NCBI GenBank assembly: GCA_963703205.1 | Contig: OY969799.1 | Location: 2,228,032-2,292,031, forward strand | Source of the DNA: an uncultured Solirubrobacteraceae bacterium | GTDB taxonomy: Bacteria > Actinomycetota > Thermoleophilia > Solirubrobacterales > Solirubrobacteraceae | Length of the DNA stretch: 64,000 bases | Direction: 5' to 3' | Shown here: positions 39,373 through 46,624 of the stretch, in pieces | Layout of the letters: every line of letters begins with the position of its first letter | How positions within the stretch are numbered: position 1 is the first letter of the stretch | The notes under the pieces: generated by a model | Told to the model about the DNA's origin: nothing | Database searches by the model: none | Seen by the model: only the letters and a program-made list of their open reading frames with translations | Translations under genes and position numbers: made by a program

Positions 39373-40845
39373 TCAGCGCTGCGACTCCTGGCCGGGCGCG
39401 GTCCCGAGCGGCGGCCCCGGCGCGAGCGAGCCCGGCCCCTCCGGGCTGTCGGCGAGCACCTCGAAGCCGCCGTCCGGGGCGCGTGCGACGACCGCCCCGT
39501 CCCAGTCGCGCAAGGGATGCGTGCCGCTGCGCTGCAGCGCCCGGCAGATGCTGCGCACGACGAAGAACACGATCATCGGCAGCACCCACACGCCGGCGCG
39601 CCAGAAGTGGATCTGCTGCTGATAGGAGATGTGCAGCTGGAAGAAGATGCGGTCGGTCGAGCCGACCGCGAAGATGATCACGACCCAGCTCATGAAGGCG
39701 GCGCCGAAGGCCGTGCGGTTGGGCCGGTCGCGCGGGCGGTCGAGCAGGTCGTGGCGGCGGTAGTCGCCTGTGATGCGCCGCTCGATCGCCGGCCACGCGT
39801 ACATGAACATGAACACGAACAGCGGGAACAACGCGCCGCCCCAGAACGGGTTCGGGAACAGCGTGTGCCCGCCGATCACCGGCCCCTCCCAGTTGGGCAT
39901 CAGCCGCAGCGCGCCGATCAGCCAGCCGATGTACCAGTCGGGCTGGGCGCCGTTCTCCGACAGGTAGGTGTGGAAGGGCCCCCACTGCCAGATCGGGTTG
40001 ATCTGGATCAGCCCGCCGGCGAGGAAGATGATCGCCGCGACGCCGAACAGCAGCCCGAGCGAGCGCAGCGCGTACGCGGGCCAGGTCGGGGTCCCCACGA
40101 CGTTGCGCTCCTTGCGCCCCTTACCCGGGAACTGCGTGTGGTGAGCGCGCATGATCATCGCCAGGTGCATCGTGATCAGGATCGCGATCGCCGCCGGGAT
40201 CAGCAGCACGTGCACGATCTCCAGCCGCGGCAAGAATTCGGATGTGCCGGGGAACTGGCCGCCCCAGATCAGCGCACCCAGCTGGGCGCCGATGAAGGGA
40301 ATCGAGAGCACGACCGAGTAGGCGATCGCCAGCCCCATGCCGGACAGCAGGTCGTCGGCGAGCGAGTAGCCCGCGAAGCCCTCGAGCACCGCGAGCATCA
40401 GCATTGTCAAGCCGATCATCCAGTTGAGGTCGCGCGGCTTGCGGTAGGCGCCGGTGAAGAAGATCCGCATCACATGGACCACGATCGCCGCGATGAAGAT
40501 GTTCGCCGCCCAGTGGTGCGCCTGGCGGATCAGCAATCCCGCGGGCACGCTGAAGCTGAGGTGCACGACCGAGCTGTAGGCCTCGGACATCGTTTCGCCC
40601 TGCAGCGGGACGTACGCGCCGTGGTAGACGACCTGCGTGTCGCTGGGGATGTAGTAGATCGTCAGGAAGATCCCGGTGGCGACGAGGACGATGAACGAGT
40701 ACAGCGCGATCTCGCCGAGCAGGAAGCTCCAGTGGTCGGGGAACACGTAGCGCAGGAACCACTTCGCGCCGGTGCTCGCGCCGGCGCGTTCTTCGGCCAG
40801 GCGCAGCGTCTTGCGCATGCGCTTGTCCATCGGGCCCTGGGTCAC
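39373..40845 (-). CDS. qcrB: cytochrome bc complex cytochrome b subunit
   Basis: FPDHWSFLLGEIALYSF, RQAHHWAA, QPDWY, LLDRPRD. Confidence 0.95.
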   Translation of the reverse strand: MTQGPMDKRMRKTLRLAEERAGASTGAKWFLRYVFPDHWSFLLGEIALYSFIVLVATGIFLTIYYIPSDTQVVYHGAYVPLQGETMSEAYSSVVHLSFSVPAGLLIRQAHHWAANIFIAAIVVHVMRIFFTGAYRKPRDLNWMIGLTMLMLAVLEGFAGYSLADDLLSGMGLAIAYSVVLSIPFIGAQLGALIWGGQFPGTSEFLPRLEIVHVLLIPAAIAILITMHLAMIMRAHHTQFPGKGRKERNVVGTPTWPAYALRSLGLLFGVAAIIFLAGGLIQINPIWQWGPFHTYLSENGAQPDWYIGWLIGALRLMPNWEGPVIGGHTLFPNPFWGGALFPLFVFMFMYAWPAIERRITGDYRRHDLLDRPRDRPNRTAFGAAFMSWVVIIFAVGSTDRIFFQLHISYQQQIHFWRAGVWVLPMIVFFVVRSICRALQRSGTHPLRDWDGAVVARAPDGGFEVLADSPEGPGSLAPGPPLGTAPGQESQR

Positions 40846-40897: not shown

Positions 40898-41923
40898 TCA
40901 CGACTCGCTCCGTTTGACGCTCCACCAGGACGGGCCGACGTCCTCGTCGAAGCCGTGGGCGGCGCGCAGGTAGCCTTCGGCGTCGATCATCAGCGCCAGC
41001 TGCGGCAGCGCGCGGCCGGCGGGACCGAACACCACGCGGCCACCCTCGCCGGGCAGGAACGTCGAGTAGTGGCACGGGCACGTGAACGCCGGGCCGTTGC
41101 TGGTCGCCTGGTAGGTGGGATAGCGGTACAGCGAGATCGCACAGCCGGCGTGCGGGCAGATCTTCGAGTAGGCGACGATCCCCTGCGGGGCCCAGGTCCT
41201 GCGCTCCGGCGGAAGGTGCAGGTACTCCGGCTCGAGCTTCACGACCAGCAGCCCGGAGCCGATCGCCTCGGGATCGCCGTGCTCGGGGAGCGCGGTGTAG
41301 AAGCTGCCCGCCGTGATGTCGCTCGCCAGGTAGGGCGTCCCTTTGTCGTCGACGAGCCGCACGCCGCGATGCCAGGGGGTGTAGTGGAAGTCGTCGAGGT
41401 TCGGCCCGAGCGAGGCCAGCGGCGTGACGGCGGCGGTCAGCAGCCCGGCACCGGCGATCCCCGCGGCGCCGCCGAGCAGCGCGCGGCGGCTGATCCCCTC
41501 CCCACCCTGCTCGATGATGTCGGCGACTTCTTCGGCCTCCTCCTCCTTGAGCATCAGGCCGCGCTCCTCGACCTCGGTCTCCTGCGGCACGACCAGCTTG
41601 CCCGCCACGACGAGCGCGGCGGCGCACAGCGCCAGCGCGCCGCCCATCGCGAGGCCGAGCAGCTGCGTGTTGTGCCCTTCGACCGCGTAGACGGCCGTGA
41701 AGCCGAAGCCGAAGACCGCTGACAGCGCCAGCAGCGCCGCGACCACCGTCTCGGCACGGCGGTTGGCCGGCACGGTGCGCTCTCTGGGATCCTCCTCGGA
41801 CTCGAGCGCGGCCGGCGGCGGGGGCTCGGCGATTGCTCCCCGCAGGACTCGCAGTGCGACCAGCCTGCCCGCCAGCTTCGTCACGACCCGCAGCGCTCCG
41901 CGGCGGGGGTCCAATGGCGTCAT
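40898..41923 (-). CDS. qcrA: Rieske iron-sulfur subunit
   Basis: TM helices, internal SRRALL Tat motif, SKICPHAGC, CPCHYS. Confidence 0.93.
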   Translation of the reverse strand: MTPLDPRRGALRVVTKLAGRLVALRVLRGAIAEPPPPAALESEEDPRERTVPANRRAETVVAALLALSAVFGFGFTAVYAVEGHNTQLLGLAMGGALALCAAALVVAGKLVVPQETEVEERGLMLKEEEAEEVADIIEQGGEGISRRALLGGAAGIAGAGLLTAAVTPLASLGPNLDDFHYTPWHRGVRLVDDKGTPYLASDITAGSFYTALPEHGDPEAIGSGLLVVKLEPEYLHLPPERRTWAPQGIVAYSKICPHAGCAISLYRYPTYQATSNGPAFTCPCHYSTFLPGEGGRVVFGPAGRALPQLALMIDAEGYLRAAHGFDEDVGPSWWSVKRSES

Positions 41924-41933
41924 CCGATCCTCC

Positions 41934-42800
41934 TCATGTCGTTCGCTCGCCGATCACCCGCGCGAACAGGATGAGCGAGAACAGCAGCAGGAACCAGGCG
42001 ACCATCCCCTCGGGGATGGGCCCGATGTTGTAGATCCCCCACCCCCCTGCGTCCTCGGGGTGCTGGGTCCAGAGCACGTAGCGCGCCAGCGAGTTGAGCT
42101 GGTGCTGGTCGATCTGCTTGGTGTCGAAGTGCGGCATCAGGTACGGGCCCATGCGGACCGCCTCGGCGACCTCCCGGGCGGTCACGTGGAGCAGCGCCGG
42201 GACGAACGCGCCGATCGTGAGCCCGCCGCGTCCGACCATCTGGTGACAGCCCGCGCAGCTCAGGGTGAATTCGTGACGGCCGAGGTTGAGGTTGCCGTTG
42301 GCGGCTTGTGCTTCCGGCGCGGGCGGCCCGCCGAACGAGGCGACGAACGCCACGAGCGCGTCGATCTCCTTGCGCGTGTAGTGGGTCGGCGAGCGCATCG
42401 GCTGGTCGCGCGGGTTCTGCAGCGGCATGCGCCCGGTCGAGAGGTAGAAGTCGGGCGGGCCCGCGCCGAGCCCGATCAGAGAGGGCGCGATCCGCCGGCG
42501 CCCCTGCAGCGCGATGCCATGGCAGGAGGAGCAGCCTTCCCTGTAGAGCGTGCGCCCTTCCGCAACCAGCGCCGGCGAGCTCGGCAGCGGGGCGGTCAGT
42601 TCGCCGGGCGCCGGCGCGATCGGGCGCTTGTTCGGGAGGACGAGTTCGGAGGAGGCGCCGGCGCCCCCGGAGCTGGCCGGCGCCTGTCCCGCGACGAGCA
42701 GTGACAGGCCGAGCGCGGCGCAGGCGGTAGCCAGCGCGACGCGCAGCGGCGCCGGGGTGCGCGGGCGGCGACGCAGCCAGCGGCGAGGAAGCGAGCTCAT
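41934..42800 (-). CDS. qcrC: di-heme cytochrome c subunit
   Basis: CSSCH and CAGCH; TGRMP; GPIPEG C-terminal TM. Confidence 0.92.
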   Translation of the reverse strand: MSSLPRRWLRRRPRTPAPLRVALATACAALGLSLLVAGQAPASSGGAGASSELVLPNKRPIAPAPGELTAPLPSSPALVAEGRTLYREGCSSCHGIALQGRRRIAPSLIGLGAGPPDFYLSTGRMPLQNPRDQPMRSPTHYTRKEIDALVAFVASFGGPPAPEAQAANGNLNLGRHEFTLSCAGCHQMVGRGGLTIGAFVPALLHVTAREVAEAVRMGPYLMPHFDTKQIDQHQLNSLARYVLWTQHPEDAGGWGIYNIGPIPEGMVAWFLLLFSLILFARVIGERTT

Positions 42801-43660
42801 CGCCTCGCCTCGATCGAGGCCTGCGCCGCGAGATCCGCGCGCCACTCCCGCGCGGACATGCGGCGCTCCTCGGCGATCATCGTCGCGAGCGCGCTCGTCA
42901 GCCCGACGACCGTCAGCAGCACGCCGCCGCCGACCCACATGATCGCCCCCGCGCGGCGCTGGTCGAGGACCGCCGAGATCCCGAGCGCGCGGGCGGCCGA
43001 TGCGTACGGCGCGTAGACGACGCTCGTCGAGTCGTTCAGGTACGCGCCGACGAGCGCCATCGCCGGCGAGGCCGCGATCAGGTAGGCGAGCCGCCCCACG
43101 CCGCCGAGCCGCCGGCGCGCGCCGGGGTCGGCGTCGAGCAGCGGCGTGAACAGCAGCAGCCCCGCGAGCAGATAGGCGGCGTGCTCGGTGTCGTGGAGCA
43201 GCGGGTGGCGCAGCGTCGCGTCATAGAAGCCCGGAAGATGCGTGCCGAGCACGACGGCGGCGAAGATCGCCAGCGCCGGCAGCGGCGCGGCGAGCGGTCG
43301 CATCAGCGCGACGGCGCGCGCCGCGCCGGGCCGCTGCGCCGGCCGCAGCGCCCGCAGCGCGAGCGTCACGGGCCGGCCGAGCAGCAGCAGCACCGGCGCC
43401 ACCATCAGCAGCAGCATGTGCTGGACCATGTGGTCGGAGAGCAGGCGGTCGTCGTAGCCGTCGACGCCCGACTGCAGCGCCACGAGCACGACACCCACGC
43501 CCGCCGCGAAGCAGGCGGCGCGCCACGCCGGCCACGTGCGCACACGCAGCGTCGCCCACGCGTAGAGGAGCAGGTAGAGCGCGGCGACCGCCTCCAGCCC
43601 GGCGTCGAAGTGCCAGCCGCGCAGCGGCATCGACAGCAGCGAGGGCGCCGCGGCGATCAT
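42797..43660 (-). CDS. ctaG: caa3-type oxidase assembly factor CtaG
   Basis: HMVQHMLLLMVAP.LL.LGRP, HDTEH, DQRRAGAIMW. Confidence 0.85.
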   Translation of the reverse strand: MIAAAPSLLSMPLRGWHFDAGLEAVAALYLLLYAWATLRVRTWPAWRAACFAAGVGVVLVALQSGVDGYDDRLLSDHMVQHMLLLMVAPVLLLLGRPVTLALRALRPAQRPGAARAVALMRPLAAPLPALAIFAAVVLGTHLPGFYDATLRHPLLHDTEHAAYLLAGLLLFTPLLDADPGARRRLGGVGRLAYLIAASPAMALVGAYLNDSTSVVYAPYASAARALGISAVLDQRRAGAIMWVGGGVLLTVVGLTSALATMIAEERRMSAREWRADLAAQASIEARR

Positions 43661-44139
43661 GCGCCCGGCCGCTCCCGTTCGACCTTCGGATCGGCCGCCG
43701 GTTCGGGCTCCGCCGGGCGGCTGCCGCGGAGGCCGGCCTCGCCGGGCCGCGGCGGCCGGTGCGCGCGCAGCGTCGCCCGCTCGGCGCGCAGCTCGAGCGC
43801 GAGGCGGCCGATCGACAGCAGCAGCAGGCCGGCCCCGAAGTAGGTCAGGAAGTGACCCCAGACGAACCCGAAGCCGATCGTCGCGATCGAGAAGCCGATC
43901 AGGCCTGCGGCGAAGCTGATGTCGGGAACGGCCTCGACTTTCGCCCGTGCGGGCGGCGGACCCCTGCGCAGGGCTTCGCGCCCCGACAGCGCGATCGCCA
44001 CGGCCGACAGCACCATGATCGCGAGCGAGCCGCCGCTGATCGCGACCTGCGTAGGTTCGCCCGCGTAGATCCAGTGCCCCAGGAACAGCACCAGCAGCAG
44101 CGCCGACCAAGCCAGCACGACCAGCGCTCCGCCCCTCAT
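43657..44139 (-). CDS. 4-TM membrane protein in oxidase operon (possible small accessory subunit)
   Basis: Hydrophobic helices; ATGA-coupled to ctaG. Confidence 0.65.
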   Translation of the reverse strand: MRGGALVVLAWSALLLVLFLGHWIYAGEPTQVAISGGSLAIMVLSAVAIALSGREALRRGPPPARAKVEAVPDISFAAGLIGFSIATIGFGFVWGHFLTYFGAGLLLLSIGRLALELRAERATLRAHRPPRPGEAGLRGSRPAEPEPAADPKVERERPGA

Positions 44140-44155: not shown

Positions 44156-45841
44156 TCACAGCCGGTCCTCCGGCGCCGGTCCGAGCCCGCCGCTGCCCGA
44201 GGGGACGCGCTCCATCAGCCCGCCGTGCCGCTCGACGGCCTGTTCGCGCCAGTCCATCAGCGGCGCGTAGGAGCGAACCGGCGGCAGCGGGCGGTCGAAG
44301 TTGTGCGCCGGCGGCGGCGAGGAGGTCGCCCACTCGAGCGTGTGCCCGAGCCATGGGTCGTCCCCCGCCTCCTCGCGACGGCGCAGCGAGACCCACACGT
44401 TGACGATGAAGATCAGGATCGCGAGCGCGATGATCCCGGCGCCGATCGACTCCACCAGGTTCAGCGTGCCCCATTGCGGGTCTTCCGGATATTCGGCGAT
44501 CCTCCTCGTCATGCCTTTTTCGCCGAGGAAGAACATCGGGCCGAAGGTCATGTTGGTGCCGATCGTGAGCACCGCCCAGTGCAGCTTCCCGAGCCCCTCC
44601 CGCAGCCTCGCGCCGGTGAGCTTCGGGAACCAGTGGTAGACGCCCGCGAAGAAGCCGAAGACGCTGCCCGCGAACAGCGTGTAGTGGAAGTGCGCGATCA
44701 GGAAGTAGCTCTGGTGCACCTGGTAGTCGAGCACCGGCGAGGCGACGAAGATCCCGCTCAGGCCGCCGATCAGGAACTGCAGGAAGAAGCCCAGCGCGAA
44801 CAGCATCGAGGTGCGCAGCACGATCGAGCCGCCGATCAGCGTCGCGATCATGTCGAAGTACTCGATTCCCGCCGGCACCACCAGCAACGTCGAGGTGAAC
44901 GCGAAGTACTGGTTGGTGACCCCGCCGGTCGTGAACATGTGGTGTGACCACACGGCCATCGAGAGCGCCGAGAAGACCATCATCGAGGCGACGAACGCCT
45001 TGTAGCCGAACCAGCGCTTGCGGGCGTTGACGGCGATCGCCTCGGCAGCCGCCCCGAGGTACGGGAAGAACATCACGTAGACGACGGGATGCCCGAAGAA
45101 CCAGAACATGTCCTGGTAGTCGATCGAGCCCCTGAAGCCGGTGAAGATGTGCGCCCCCCACCGTTCGGCGAAGAGCAGGCACATCACGACCACGAGCACC
45201 GGGAACGCGCCCACCACCATCAGCACGCTGACCAGGCCGGTCCACGTGTACACGGGCATCCGCAGCAGCGCCATGCCGGGCGCGCGCCGGCGCACGACGG
45301 TCGCGAGCACGCACGCCGCGACGAGGATCAGGCCGAGCGCGGCGAGGATCACGCCGAGCGTCCACATGTCCTGTCCCACGCCCGGGGTCCAAGCGGCGTT
45401 CGAGAGCGGCACGTAGGCGAACCAGCCGGCGTGCCCCGGCCCTTCCTGCGTGAGCCAGCCGGACTGCATGATGATCCCGCCCGAGGTCCACATCCAGAAC
45501 CCGGCGAGCGCGACGCGCATCCCGGACAGGTTCGCCGCGCCGATCTGCAGCGGCACGAGGTACACCGACATCGCGATCGCCATCGGCGTGACGAACAGGT
45601 AGATCATGGTCGAGCCGTGCATCGTGAACAGGGCTTCGTAGGCGCTGTAGCTGACGAAGTGCGTCGCCGGCTGGGCCAGCTGCACGCGCATCAGCAGCGC
45701 CATCACGCCGCCGCCGAGGAAGTACAGGAAGGAGGCGGCCATCATGTTCACGCCGAGCCGCTTGTGGTCGGTGCTGGCGAGCGCGCCGATCCAGCCCGGT
45801 GTGCGCGGCAGCGTCGTCAGCCGCGGAGCGGTGACGTTCAC
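44156..45841 (-). CDS. ctaD: heme-copper oxidase subunit I, atypical proton-channel residues
   Basis: STDHK, TMHG, WFFGHPVVY, WSHHMF, AHFHY, GMTRR; GTG start overlaps ctaC stop. Confidence 0.95.
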   Translation of the reverse strand: MNVTAPRLTTLPRTPGWIGALASTDHKRLGVNMMAASFLYFLGGGVMALLMRVQLAQPATHFVSYSAYEALFTMHGSTMIYLFVTPMAIAMSVYLVPLQIGAANLSGMRVALAGFWMWTSGGIIMQSGWLTQEGPGHAGWFAYVPLSNAAWTPGVGQDMWTLGVILAALGLILVAACVLATVVRRRAPGMALLRMPVYTWTGLVSVLMVVGAFPVLVVVMCLLFAERWGAHIFTGFRGSIDYQDMFWFFGHPVVYVMFFPYLGAAAEAIAVNARKRWFGYKAFVASMMVFSALSMAVWSHHMFTTGGVTNQYFAFTSTLLVVPAGIEYFDMIATLIGGSIVLRTSMLFALGFFLQFLIGGLSGIFVASPVLDYQVHQSYFLIAHFHYTLFAGSVFGFFAGVYHWFPKLTGARLREGLGKLHWAVLTIGTNMTFGPMFFLGEKGMTRRIAEYPEDPQWGTLNLVESIGAGIIALAILIFIVNVWVSLRRREEAGDDPWLGHTLEWATSSPPPAHNFDRPLPPVRSYAPLMDWREQAVERHGGLMERVPSGSGGLGPAPEDRL

Positions 45842-46545
45842 GAGGAGGCTCCTTCGTGTCCGGAGCTTCGCGTTTCGCCCGCGCCGCCGGCCGCTCCGGG
45901 GCGGCGGTTCGAGGCGGCCCACACCGCGAACTGCTTCGGCGGCACGGCTCGCACCGAGAACACCATGCGCGTGTGGTACAGGCCACAGAATTCTCCGCAG
46001 TGGCCCTGGAAGGTGCCGGGGCGCGTGAAGGTCAGGATCTCGGTCTGTGCCATCCCCGGGATCAGATCGTGCTTGTACTTGAGCTCGGGAACCCAGAACT
46101 CGTGGATGACGTCGAGCGAGACCAGCCTGAAGGCAATCGCCTCGTTGGTCGGGACCACGAGCTGTTCGTGTCCGACCGTCCCGCTGTAACGGCTGATCCC
46201 GTATTCCGGGTACTGGAAGTGCCACTCCCAGCGCGAGCCGAAGACGGTGACGTGCAGCTGCGGGCGCTCCCTGCGCGCCGAGGCGTCGACCCGGTTCTCA
46301 GCCGAGAACGTGACGTAGAGCAGGAAGCCGACGATCAGCGCGAGGACCACCGCGTAGCCGGCCTCGAGCGGGTTGTTCTCGTGCCAGCGGCTGGCCTGTG
46401 AGGGCTCGCGGCGCCGGAACAGGAGGACCGCGCCGATCGTCAGGACGAGGACGACGCCGAAGACCGCGAGGCCGATCGGGACGTAGATGCTGAAGACGTG
46501 TTCGTATTCGTGCCGCGTCGAGACCAGCGCGAAGGTCTCAGACAT
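45838..46545 (-). CDS. ctaC: cytochrome c oxidase subunit II (CuA)
   Basis: Two TM, RWEWHFQY, DVIHEFW, CGEFCGLYHTRM. Confidence 0.93.
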   Translation of the reverse strand: MSETFALVSTRHEYEHVFSIYVPIGLAVFGVVLVLTIGAVLLFRRREPSQASRWHENNPLEAGYAVVLALIVGFLLYVTFSAENRVDASARRERPQLHVTVFGSRWEWHFQYPEYGISRYSGTVGHEQLVVPTNEAIAFRLVSLDVIHEFWVPELKYKHDLIPGMAQTEILTFTRPGTFQGHCGEFCGLYHTRMVFSVRAVPPKQFAVWAASNRRPGAAGGAGETRSSGHEGASS

Positions 46546-46599: not shown

Positions 46600-46624
46600 C
46601 TACCCCAGGCACGGTCCGCGAAAC
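46600..46624 (-). promoter_or_regulatory. SigB/SigF-type promoter motif of the oxidase-bc operon
   Basis: GTTT-N15-GGGTAG, about 55 nt upstream of ctaC ATG. Confidence 0.65.

Follow-up and report, generated by a model that had tools for sequence, protein, structure and literature searches.

The closest described relatives of the oxidase reported here, by both sequence and fold, are the CtaD subunits of the actinobacterial bcc-aa3 chains of M. smegmatis (6ADQ, 6HWH and 7RH5) and C. glutamicum (7Q21 and 7QHM). The available text of PMC11189923 names the M. smegmatis residues D115, E266, Y268, T337 and K340, and E286 is described, in an account available in part, as the buried proton relay of A1 enzymes. 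According to the accessible portion of PMC8361435, subunit III supports proton uptake by the D-pathway and a loop of QcrB covers the D entrance in mycobacteria. Three questions remain in the field: the need for two channels, the function of Lys362, and the way in which pumping works with a single channel.

There is precedent for A-family enzymes without the K-channel lysine and for B-family enzymes without a D-channel. The ba3 oxidase of T. thermophilus (B family) has neither a D-channel nor a subunit III, carries a hydrophobic residue at the E286 position (I235), works with a CuA subunit II and the cross-link Tyr, and has an O2 channel widened by substitutions at W172/F282. The modified-K oxidases, including the actinobacterial ones of Acidimicrobium and Acidithrix, keep the A scaffold without K362: in the part of that survey available, E is absent from the residues that stand in for K354, among them I, V, L, F, A, M and T (Degli Esposti 2021; PMC8239418), and for the set used in one of the trees its supplement, as far as accessible, states that the D-channel is not significantly altered. 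A2-type oxidases (YSHPxVY) lack E286 and are recognised by the YS motif, an intact lower D-channel and K362. The NO reductases share the heme-copper scaffold, and in the accessible text of PMC11214002 the families eNOR, bNOR, sNOR, nNOR, gNOR, cNOR and qNOR lack the cross-link Tyr and are B- or C-derived, with sNOR having an extra channel Glu. Murali 2024, in the portion available, points to Nitrosopumilus for an A-to-B intermediate without a D-channel.

Here, we describe a clade of A1-derived subunit I proteins in which the D-channel is lost and the K-channel lysine is replaced by glutamate, represented by a ctaD gene in a 64,000-nucleotide stretch of an uncultured Solirubrobacteraceae genome (contig OY969799.1; hereafter the window). 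In the literature searched, beyond which lie several subscription surveys and supplements, we found no account of the clade and no sign that it is already characterised; it is apparently undescribed in searchable papers. With the D-channel removed and the Lys exchanged for an acid on an A1 scaffold whose model matches solved structures at TM 0.96, the clade amounts to a natural experiment. Turnover and H+/e- of a clade enzyme, along with its diagnostic changes copied into a model oxidase, would address the channel questions above.

The locus and its bcc-aa3 partners

The product of ctaD matches Pfam COX1, its closest structures are the CtaD chains of M. smegmatis and C. glutamicum (E 2e-136), and its AlphaFold model (pLDDT 93.1) fits both at TM 0.96. 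Residue numbering was fixed in three ways, by M. smegmatis 6ADQ, E. coli CyoB and R. sphaeroides 1M56 (via the representative P0215), and the three reference alignments agree on the equivalents of E286, D132 and K362, leaving them where the sequence-only reading had put them. That reading had also assigned the protein to the A-family scaffold, on which the alignments, the CuA-type subunit II, the model and the tree all agree. It is confirmed that the gene is intact and encodes a heme-copper oxidase subunit I of A1 origin. Its scores lie under the curated NCBIfam cut-offs (548 against 880 and 532 against 671), and automated annotation labels clade proteins as ordinary subunit I or as 'cbb3-type'; energy yields inferred for the Actinomycetota that carry them may therefore be off.

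The operon runs ctaC-ctaD-ctaF (ORF160)-ctaG-qcrC-qcrA-qcrB, with short or overlapping junctions, the GTG start of ctaD overlapping the ctaC stop (Table 1). Of the components of a bcc-aa3 chain, CtaC, CtaD, CtaF, a di-heme QcrC, QcrA and a full-length QcrB are present, and every cofactor ligand is kept in CtaC, CtaD and QcrABC. The CuA ligands of CtaC are invariant in 12/12 clade members and E61, which we infer to be the K-channel entry Glu equivalent to R. sphaeroides E101, is kept in 11/12. The assigned subunit IV, ORF160, is divergent: it gives a weak match to Pfam PF12270, below cut-off, in 6/12 members, the top fold matches of its model are non-significant, and its profile brings up nothing meaningful among PDB sequences.

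Table 1. Oxidase operon features and the sites discussed, in window coordinates
Feature	Coordinates	Strand	Remarks
qcrB	39373..40845	(-)	full-length actinobacterial cytochrome b, PDWY motif; NCBIfam NF050120 553 bits, cut-off 500
qcrA	40898..41923	(-)	Rieske protein
qcrC	41934..42800	(-)	di-heme cytochrome c; two CxxCH
ctaG	42797..43660	(-)	caa3_CtaG assembly factor; Pfam PF09678 E 1e-59
ctaF (ORF160)	43657..44139	(-)	divergent actinobacterial subunit IV, four helices; hhalign 93.8%, E 1.7e-7 against canonical CtaF
ctaD	44156..45841	(-)	561 aa; subunit I of the heme-copper oxidase, with K362E and loss of the D-channel
Helix VIII, P323-D330	44852..44875	(-)	A324 (T359), E327 (K362), Y328 (I363), D330 (S365)
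E327 codon	44863-44861		
Helix VI, H251-P-V253-V-Y255	45077..45091	(-)	Val at the E286 position; CuB His and cross-link Tyr unchanged
ctaC	45838..46545	(-)	subunit II; CuA ligands H148, C183, C187, H191, M194; E61
Promoter-like site, SigF/SigB type	46601..46624	(-)	GTTT-N15-GGGTA; ends 55 bases before ctaC ATG

The clade shares its partners (CtaC, CtaF and QcrCAB), its metal ligands and its Tyr with the actinobacterial bcc-aa3 enzymes, among which it is nested. Unlike them, its operon has no ctaE, carries ctaG within, encodes a shorter QcrB, and specifies an accessory rather than a main oxidase. Among 16 clade loci (L014 and L019 being one place), qcrCAB lies downstream in 15, the exception being a 4-kb contig, and ctaG was detected by tblastn in 9. 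In the bcc-aa3 supercomplex, CtaE together with CtaF makes up subunit III and the interface between III and IV. The gene ctaE normally precedes qcrC; its profile matched none of the 16 clade loci and 23/73 control loci, the other 50/73 controls also being without ctaE nearby. Since the genome of the window has one ctaE elsewhere, that copy could be shared with the clade operon. The C-terminal tail of QcrB is about 60-80 residues shorter than in the mycobacterial chains in 6/6 examined, and the missing part is presumably the D-entrance loop of mycobacterial QcrB.

The oxygen-reducing site is preserved. The close homologue set used throughout holds the best 120 of 7974 scored sequences, at 71-95% identity, and in each of these 120 we find the ligands H75, H251, H300, H301, H384 and H386, the cross-link Tyr (Y255, equivalent to Y288) and the Arg pair R446/R447, just as the sequence-only reading had described the six His, the Tyr and the Arg pair as intact. 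The W172 equivalent (W140) and the F282 equivalent are likewise kept. A change proposed at the Mg/Mn site, HDTY to HQSY, is true of the window gene, where Q377 stands at D412, but does not extend to the clade: because the Asp is retained in 68/120 of the best 120 of 7974, its loss is not a clade feature. In three loci (L009, L010 and L013), the Mg-site Asp of subunit I is Met and a CuA-loop Glu of subunit II is Val, and these paired changes suggest joint loss of the Mg/Mn site. In the deepest-branching member (the ctaD of L023), E286 is replaced by Leu, position D132 is still Asp, and Gln takes the place of the second of the paired Arg.

The D- and K-channels

Both canonical proton channels were thought from the sequence to be remodelled. 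Both are indeed altered, but in different ways: the D-channel has been taken apart, its positions now filled variably, whereas the K-channel gains new invariant polar residues. At the positions that mark a D-channel in A1 enzymes (D132, N121, N139, N207 and E286), the window gene reads N104, V93, A111, C177 and V253, with M33 at Y33 and G170/L171 at S200/S201; of these, C177, M33 and G170/L171 are additions to the list of the sequence-only reading. The predicted replacement of GHPEVY by GHPVVY (E286V, without a YS motif) is seen as FGHPVVY, with V253 in 120/120 of the best 120 of 7974 and the column reading V15/A1/L1 in 17 diverse clade rows. The proposed N121V and N139A are also found, and both Asn are replaced in all 17 of these rows. 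Y33, N121, N139 and N207, each present in 94/94 canonical rows, give way to mixed replacements in the 17. The proposed D132N, although present in the window gene, is not general in the clade. Position 104 is G/S/R/A/T in 112/120 of the best 120 of 7974, and in 14 divergent members it is Glu in 9 and Asp in 1, an acid thus being kept at D132 in 10/14; Asn is hence the window gene's own state. As the D-channel residues vary and those on the K side do not, we regard the D-channel as relaxed and the K side as newly fixed.

On helix VIII, A324, E327 and Y328 each occur in 120/120 of the best 120 of 7974 and D330 in 116/120. Across the 17 diverse clade rows, A324 is found in 17/17 (against T in 94/94 canonical rows), E327 in 17/17 (against K in 93/94) and Y328 in 17/17 (against F/I/V), and the D330 column is not universal (D10, E2, A3, G2). 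A266 occupies the S299 position, where Ser is replaced by A/G; with T359A, this makes two polar K-channel residues lost. Hence the change of VPTGxK to VPAGIE (T359A, K362E) is borne out by A324 and E327, and I363Y, S365D and S299A, unlisted by the sequence-only reading, are to be added. That reading had also asked whether homologues share V286 and E362; V253 and E327 are both in 120/120 of the best 120 of 7974. Because V253, A324, E327 and Y328 are each invariant in this set, the changes are not due to chance or to assembly error. Of the four K-side residues of A1 enzymes considered (K362, T359, S299 and subunit II E101), replaced here by E327, A324 and A266 in the first three cases, only the subunit II Glu is retained.

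A glutamate at this site is rare elsewhere. Among 150 A-family representatives the K362 column reads K 75, Q 21, L 16, I 10 and E 8, along with others, and 7/8 of the representatives with K362E are fragments of the clade described here. The eighth, P0233, is labelled Phycisphaerae and belongs to an A2 lineage whose named members are Phycisphaerae; counting P0233 and its relatives, 3/120 sequences (P0233, P0278 and P0284) have E at K362, two of them with D132/N139 intact; on the tree, K362E in this lineage needs two changes. Glu at the K362 site thus arose independently but rarely, and any lone case could be explained by a single-base change. Its independent occurrence in an A2 lineage suggests that Glu is workable at the K362 site. 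Several neighbours of these three sequences lose D132/N139 yet keep the Lys. A large lineage of subunit I-III fusions (the P0128-P0178 group) has Gln at K362 (21/150 representatives), often with Glu at N207, and some of its members have Trp, Asp or Leu at E286.

Further polar residues lie outside helix VIII. E464 (window 44450-44452), at the position of R. sphaeroides S497, is a second new buried Glu, present in 118/120 close homologues (best 120 of 7974), 5/12 divergent members and 1/94 canonical rows, and Q355 is found in 16/17 diverse clade rows. Q355, T388 and N430 were considered together as clade-specific channel residues and set aside, T388 and N430 being found in canonical rows too.

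As judged from these aligned residues, the channels of the clade conform to none of the A1, A2, B or NOR patterns, and the O2 site is kept. All four of D115, E266, T337 and K340 of M. smegmatis CtaD are replaced. Of the A2 marks, only a Tyr at the F282 position appears, in 13/14 divergent members; it lacks the Ser partner, the lower D-channel (N121, N139 and N207) is lost and K362 is absent. Likeness to ba3 in the absent D-channel and the hydrophobic residue at E286 does not reflect common descent, the SoxB model giving CtaD only 68 bits against 532 for the CtaD model; the clade has Glu rather than Thr at K362, keeps the W172/F282 equivalents and, of the B-family residues Y237, S309, T312, Y244 and Y248 (as given in the accessible text of PMC11214002), matches only the Tyr. 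Nor is the Tyr absent or replaced as in the NOR families, Y255 being invariant in the best 120 of 7974.

Descent, proton entry and rival explanations

The substitutions are common to homologues that form one clade, in keeping with the earlier suggestion of a conserved, concerted and re-plumbed oxidase subfamily with a Glu in place of the K-channel Lys. A first tree of 111 rows, from which one mis-extracted ORF was left out, gathers the 36 carriers into a single branch (SH-aLRT 100). The second, of 116 rows, was built after 13 trait columns had been taken out and included diverse A-family representatives other than short, ligand-less or near-duplicate ones; it again unites its 13 carriers (SH-aLRT 100) and seats them inside a 32-row group (96) of mostly actinobacterial A1-type CtaD with E286 and K362. 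Both trees are quick searches without bootstrap and without B or C rows, and the sister group of the clade is not settled by them. Descent from A2 enzymes, considered in view of the Tyr at F282 in divergent members, was rejected since the tree places the clade with A1. Three sequences (P0057, L027 and L054) bear Gammaproteobacteria, Campylobacter and Acidobacteria labels on actinobacterial-type CtaD and are possibly mis-binned contigs. Codon comparisons show purifying selection on the clade, with dN/dS of 0.065-0.13 in 10 close pairs among L009-L013, well away from the value near 1 expected of decay; the 0.34-0.70 obtained in 8 pairs with the window gene comes from distant partners near synonymous saturation.

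What, then, might the replaced residues do? We propose, at a probability of about 0.55, that the clade enzyme is a one-channel O2 reductase in which Glu327 would be the proton relay, with little or no proton pumping. The enzyme likely still reduces O2 to water, and electrons in such a chain pass from menaquinol through QcrB/QcrA, QcrC, CuA and heme a to heme a3-CuB. Loss of the D-channel leaves the four chemical protons in need of another entry, and E327 and Y328 alone are both new and invariant among the polar residues of the known channel regions. The protons would come in at CtaC E61 and travel by way of the D330/Y328 region to E327; from there, water in the space freed by T359A would lead them on to Y255, with E327 acting as a buried relay to Y255 much as E286 acts in A1 enzymes. 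Energy would still be conserved through the Q cycle and charge separation. Against this reading stand the losses at T359 (to A) and S299 (to A/G), the non-universal D330, and the acid at D132 in 10/14 divergent members. That the enzyme is non-pumping, as had been suggested from its residues, is plausible; channel loss does not by itself imply low pumping, since enzymes of the B and C families have a single channel and still pump 2 H+ per O2 (PMC11214002, accessible text). The same precedent would favour a one-channel O2 reductase that does pump, via the Glu327 path at ~0.5 H+/e-, much as ba3 pumps by its one K-type channel, in an independent A-to-B-like transition. Such an enzyme would have in its Val at E286 a parallel to I235 of ba3, and would find a suitable pump relay in a protonatable Glu, with the Arg pair and the W172 equivalent kept. 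We consider it unlikely since S309, T312, Y244 and Y248 of ba3 map to A324, E327, L262 and A266 with none in common, the Mg-site region near the exit path is variable, and an accessory stress enzyme would have less need of pumping. The loss of both T359 and S299 is also what might be expected if protons arrived by another route altogether, whether from the outside, which would make the enzyme a non-electrogenic scavenger of O2 or a sink for electrons, or along helices IX-XII, in which this subclade shows the new polar residues E464 (118/120 of the best 120 of 7974) and Q355 (16/17), and if E327 were structural or bound a cation or the heme tail. This is quite doubtful, as E327 is clade-wide and E464 is not, the CtaC entry Glu is kept in 11/12, and the H456 equivalent is variable (H/Q/N).

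The proposed one-channel reductase with Glu327 as relay must also be set against a change of chemistry and against decay. A shift to NO reduction or another reaction, raised by the sequence-only reading, would make sense of the channel loss, which slower proton needs would tolerate, and in the available text of PMC11214002 oxygen reductases gave rise to NORs several times over and weak NO reduction is ascribed to A-type enzymes. It is nonetheless improbable, because the redox Tyr, absent from all described NOR families in that same text, is kept in 120/120 (best 120 of 7974) with no new metal ligand in its place, and because the partners, CuA-CtaC and QcrCAB, are those of an aerobic bcc-aa3 chain; no denitrification genes were seen among the 74 neighbours scanned. 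The altered O2 affinity mooted alongside it finds no sequence support, the W172 and F282 equivalents being kept, and a B-type widening of the O2 channel was likewise discarded since the ba3-like substitutions at these positions are absent. A decaying or dead paralogue, or a set of assembly errors, would fit the patchy distribution, the scores below the NCBIfam cut-offs and the frameshifts in loci L014, L015, L016 and L031, but is highly improbable: the same substitutions recur in 120 independent sequences (best 120 of 7974) at a dN/dS of ~0.1, the cofactor ligands of CtaC, CtaD and QcrABC are all kept, and the frameshifts strike unrelated genes too in the same assemblies.

Distribution, other oxidases and stress context

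The clade enzyme is patchy in distribution and accessory, standing beside other oxidases. Of 61 related genomes, 10 have a copy at ≥55% identity, and each of the 10 also encodes two or more further subunit I proteins. We found the helix VIII motif in 10/401 genomes of the class, the six newly read ones all being clade members, and in at least 4/401 genomes across the phylum; the listing of related loci holds at least 7 clade loci and 73 control loci. Carriers comprise MAGs of Solirubrobacterales and Thermoleophilia, Acidimicrobiales, Pseudonocardiaceae, unclassified Actinomycetota MAGs and Paraconexibacter antarcticus 02-257, the last a cultured organism.

The genome of the window also encodes a canonical A1 oxidase, an A2 oxidase with ctaE, a frameshifted third subunit I, a split cytochrome b complex and heme A synthase; no cytochrome bd was seen in this assembly, which is 79.8% complete. 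The first two form tandem operons (G000:C1:732204-742693), A1 (GHPEVY) with ctaB and then A2 (YSHPAVY) with ctaE. The frameshifted gene (G000:C1:3073651-3076856) has GHPEVY but no K362, is preceded by a cupredoxin-like gene and a subunit II, and resembles the Acidimicrobium-type group. A third locus (G000:C1:2965604-2968034) holds a Rieske protein, a split cytochrome b with PEWY and a fused cytochrome c, and is probably the housekeeping bc complex. Conexibacter and Patulibacter are reported to have cytochrome b in the split form (PMC4122944, accessible part), so the full-length qcrB operon is an extra.

The site before ctaC may point to a role under stress. The GTTT-N15-GGGTA pattern used in the search, which we take to be a short form of the SigF consensus, occurs 8 times in the window against 0.02 expected, and 37 times in the genome. 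The ctaC site lies near the mycobacterial SigF consensus GGWWT-N16-17-GGGTAY (PMC7693655, in the part available) but departs from it at both boxes. The M. smegmatis SigF regulon is induced on respiratory inhibition, according to the same portion of that source. The clade enzyme is likely stress-induced, to judge from these motifs and its neighbours, and would serve as a reserve branch that a SigF/SigB-type sigma factor turns on when the cell is stressed or short of energy. In the 15 relative loci, no strict site lies ≤400 bp from ctaC, this placement being found only in the window; in five of them a strict site precedes the gene that lies upstream of ctaC, and in two a looser one stands immediately ahead of ctaC itself. 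The clade loci hold 14 strict sites in 232 kb and the controls 6 in 1,199 kb, a comparison confounded by taxonomy.

The part of the window from 23022 to 61739 holds eight of the genome's 37 strict sites, lying before Usp, PfpI, dehydrogenase and other genes, and may be a general-stress island. Neighbours in the window include a group-3 sigma factor, STAS, PfpI, DUF892, Usp and Top1B; those at relative loci, where 74/92 candidate ORFs were scanned, include GH15 trehalase-like, ferritin-like, DUF892, Ku and TPP-enzyme genes. At two clade loci (L008:1-3730 and L017:2062-7327) formate dehydrogenase-like molybdoenzyme genes adjoin the operon, and in L017 a SCO1/redoxin gene follows qcrB.
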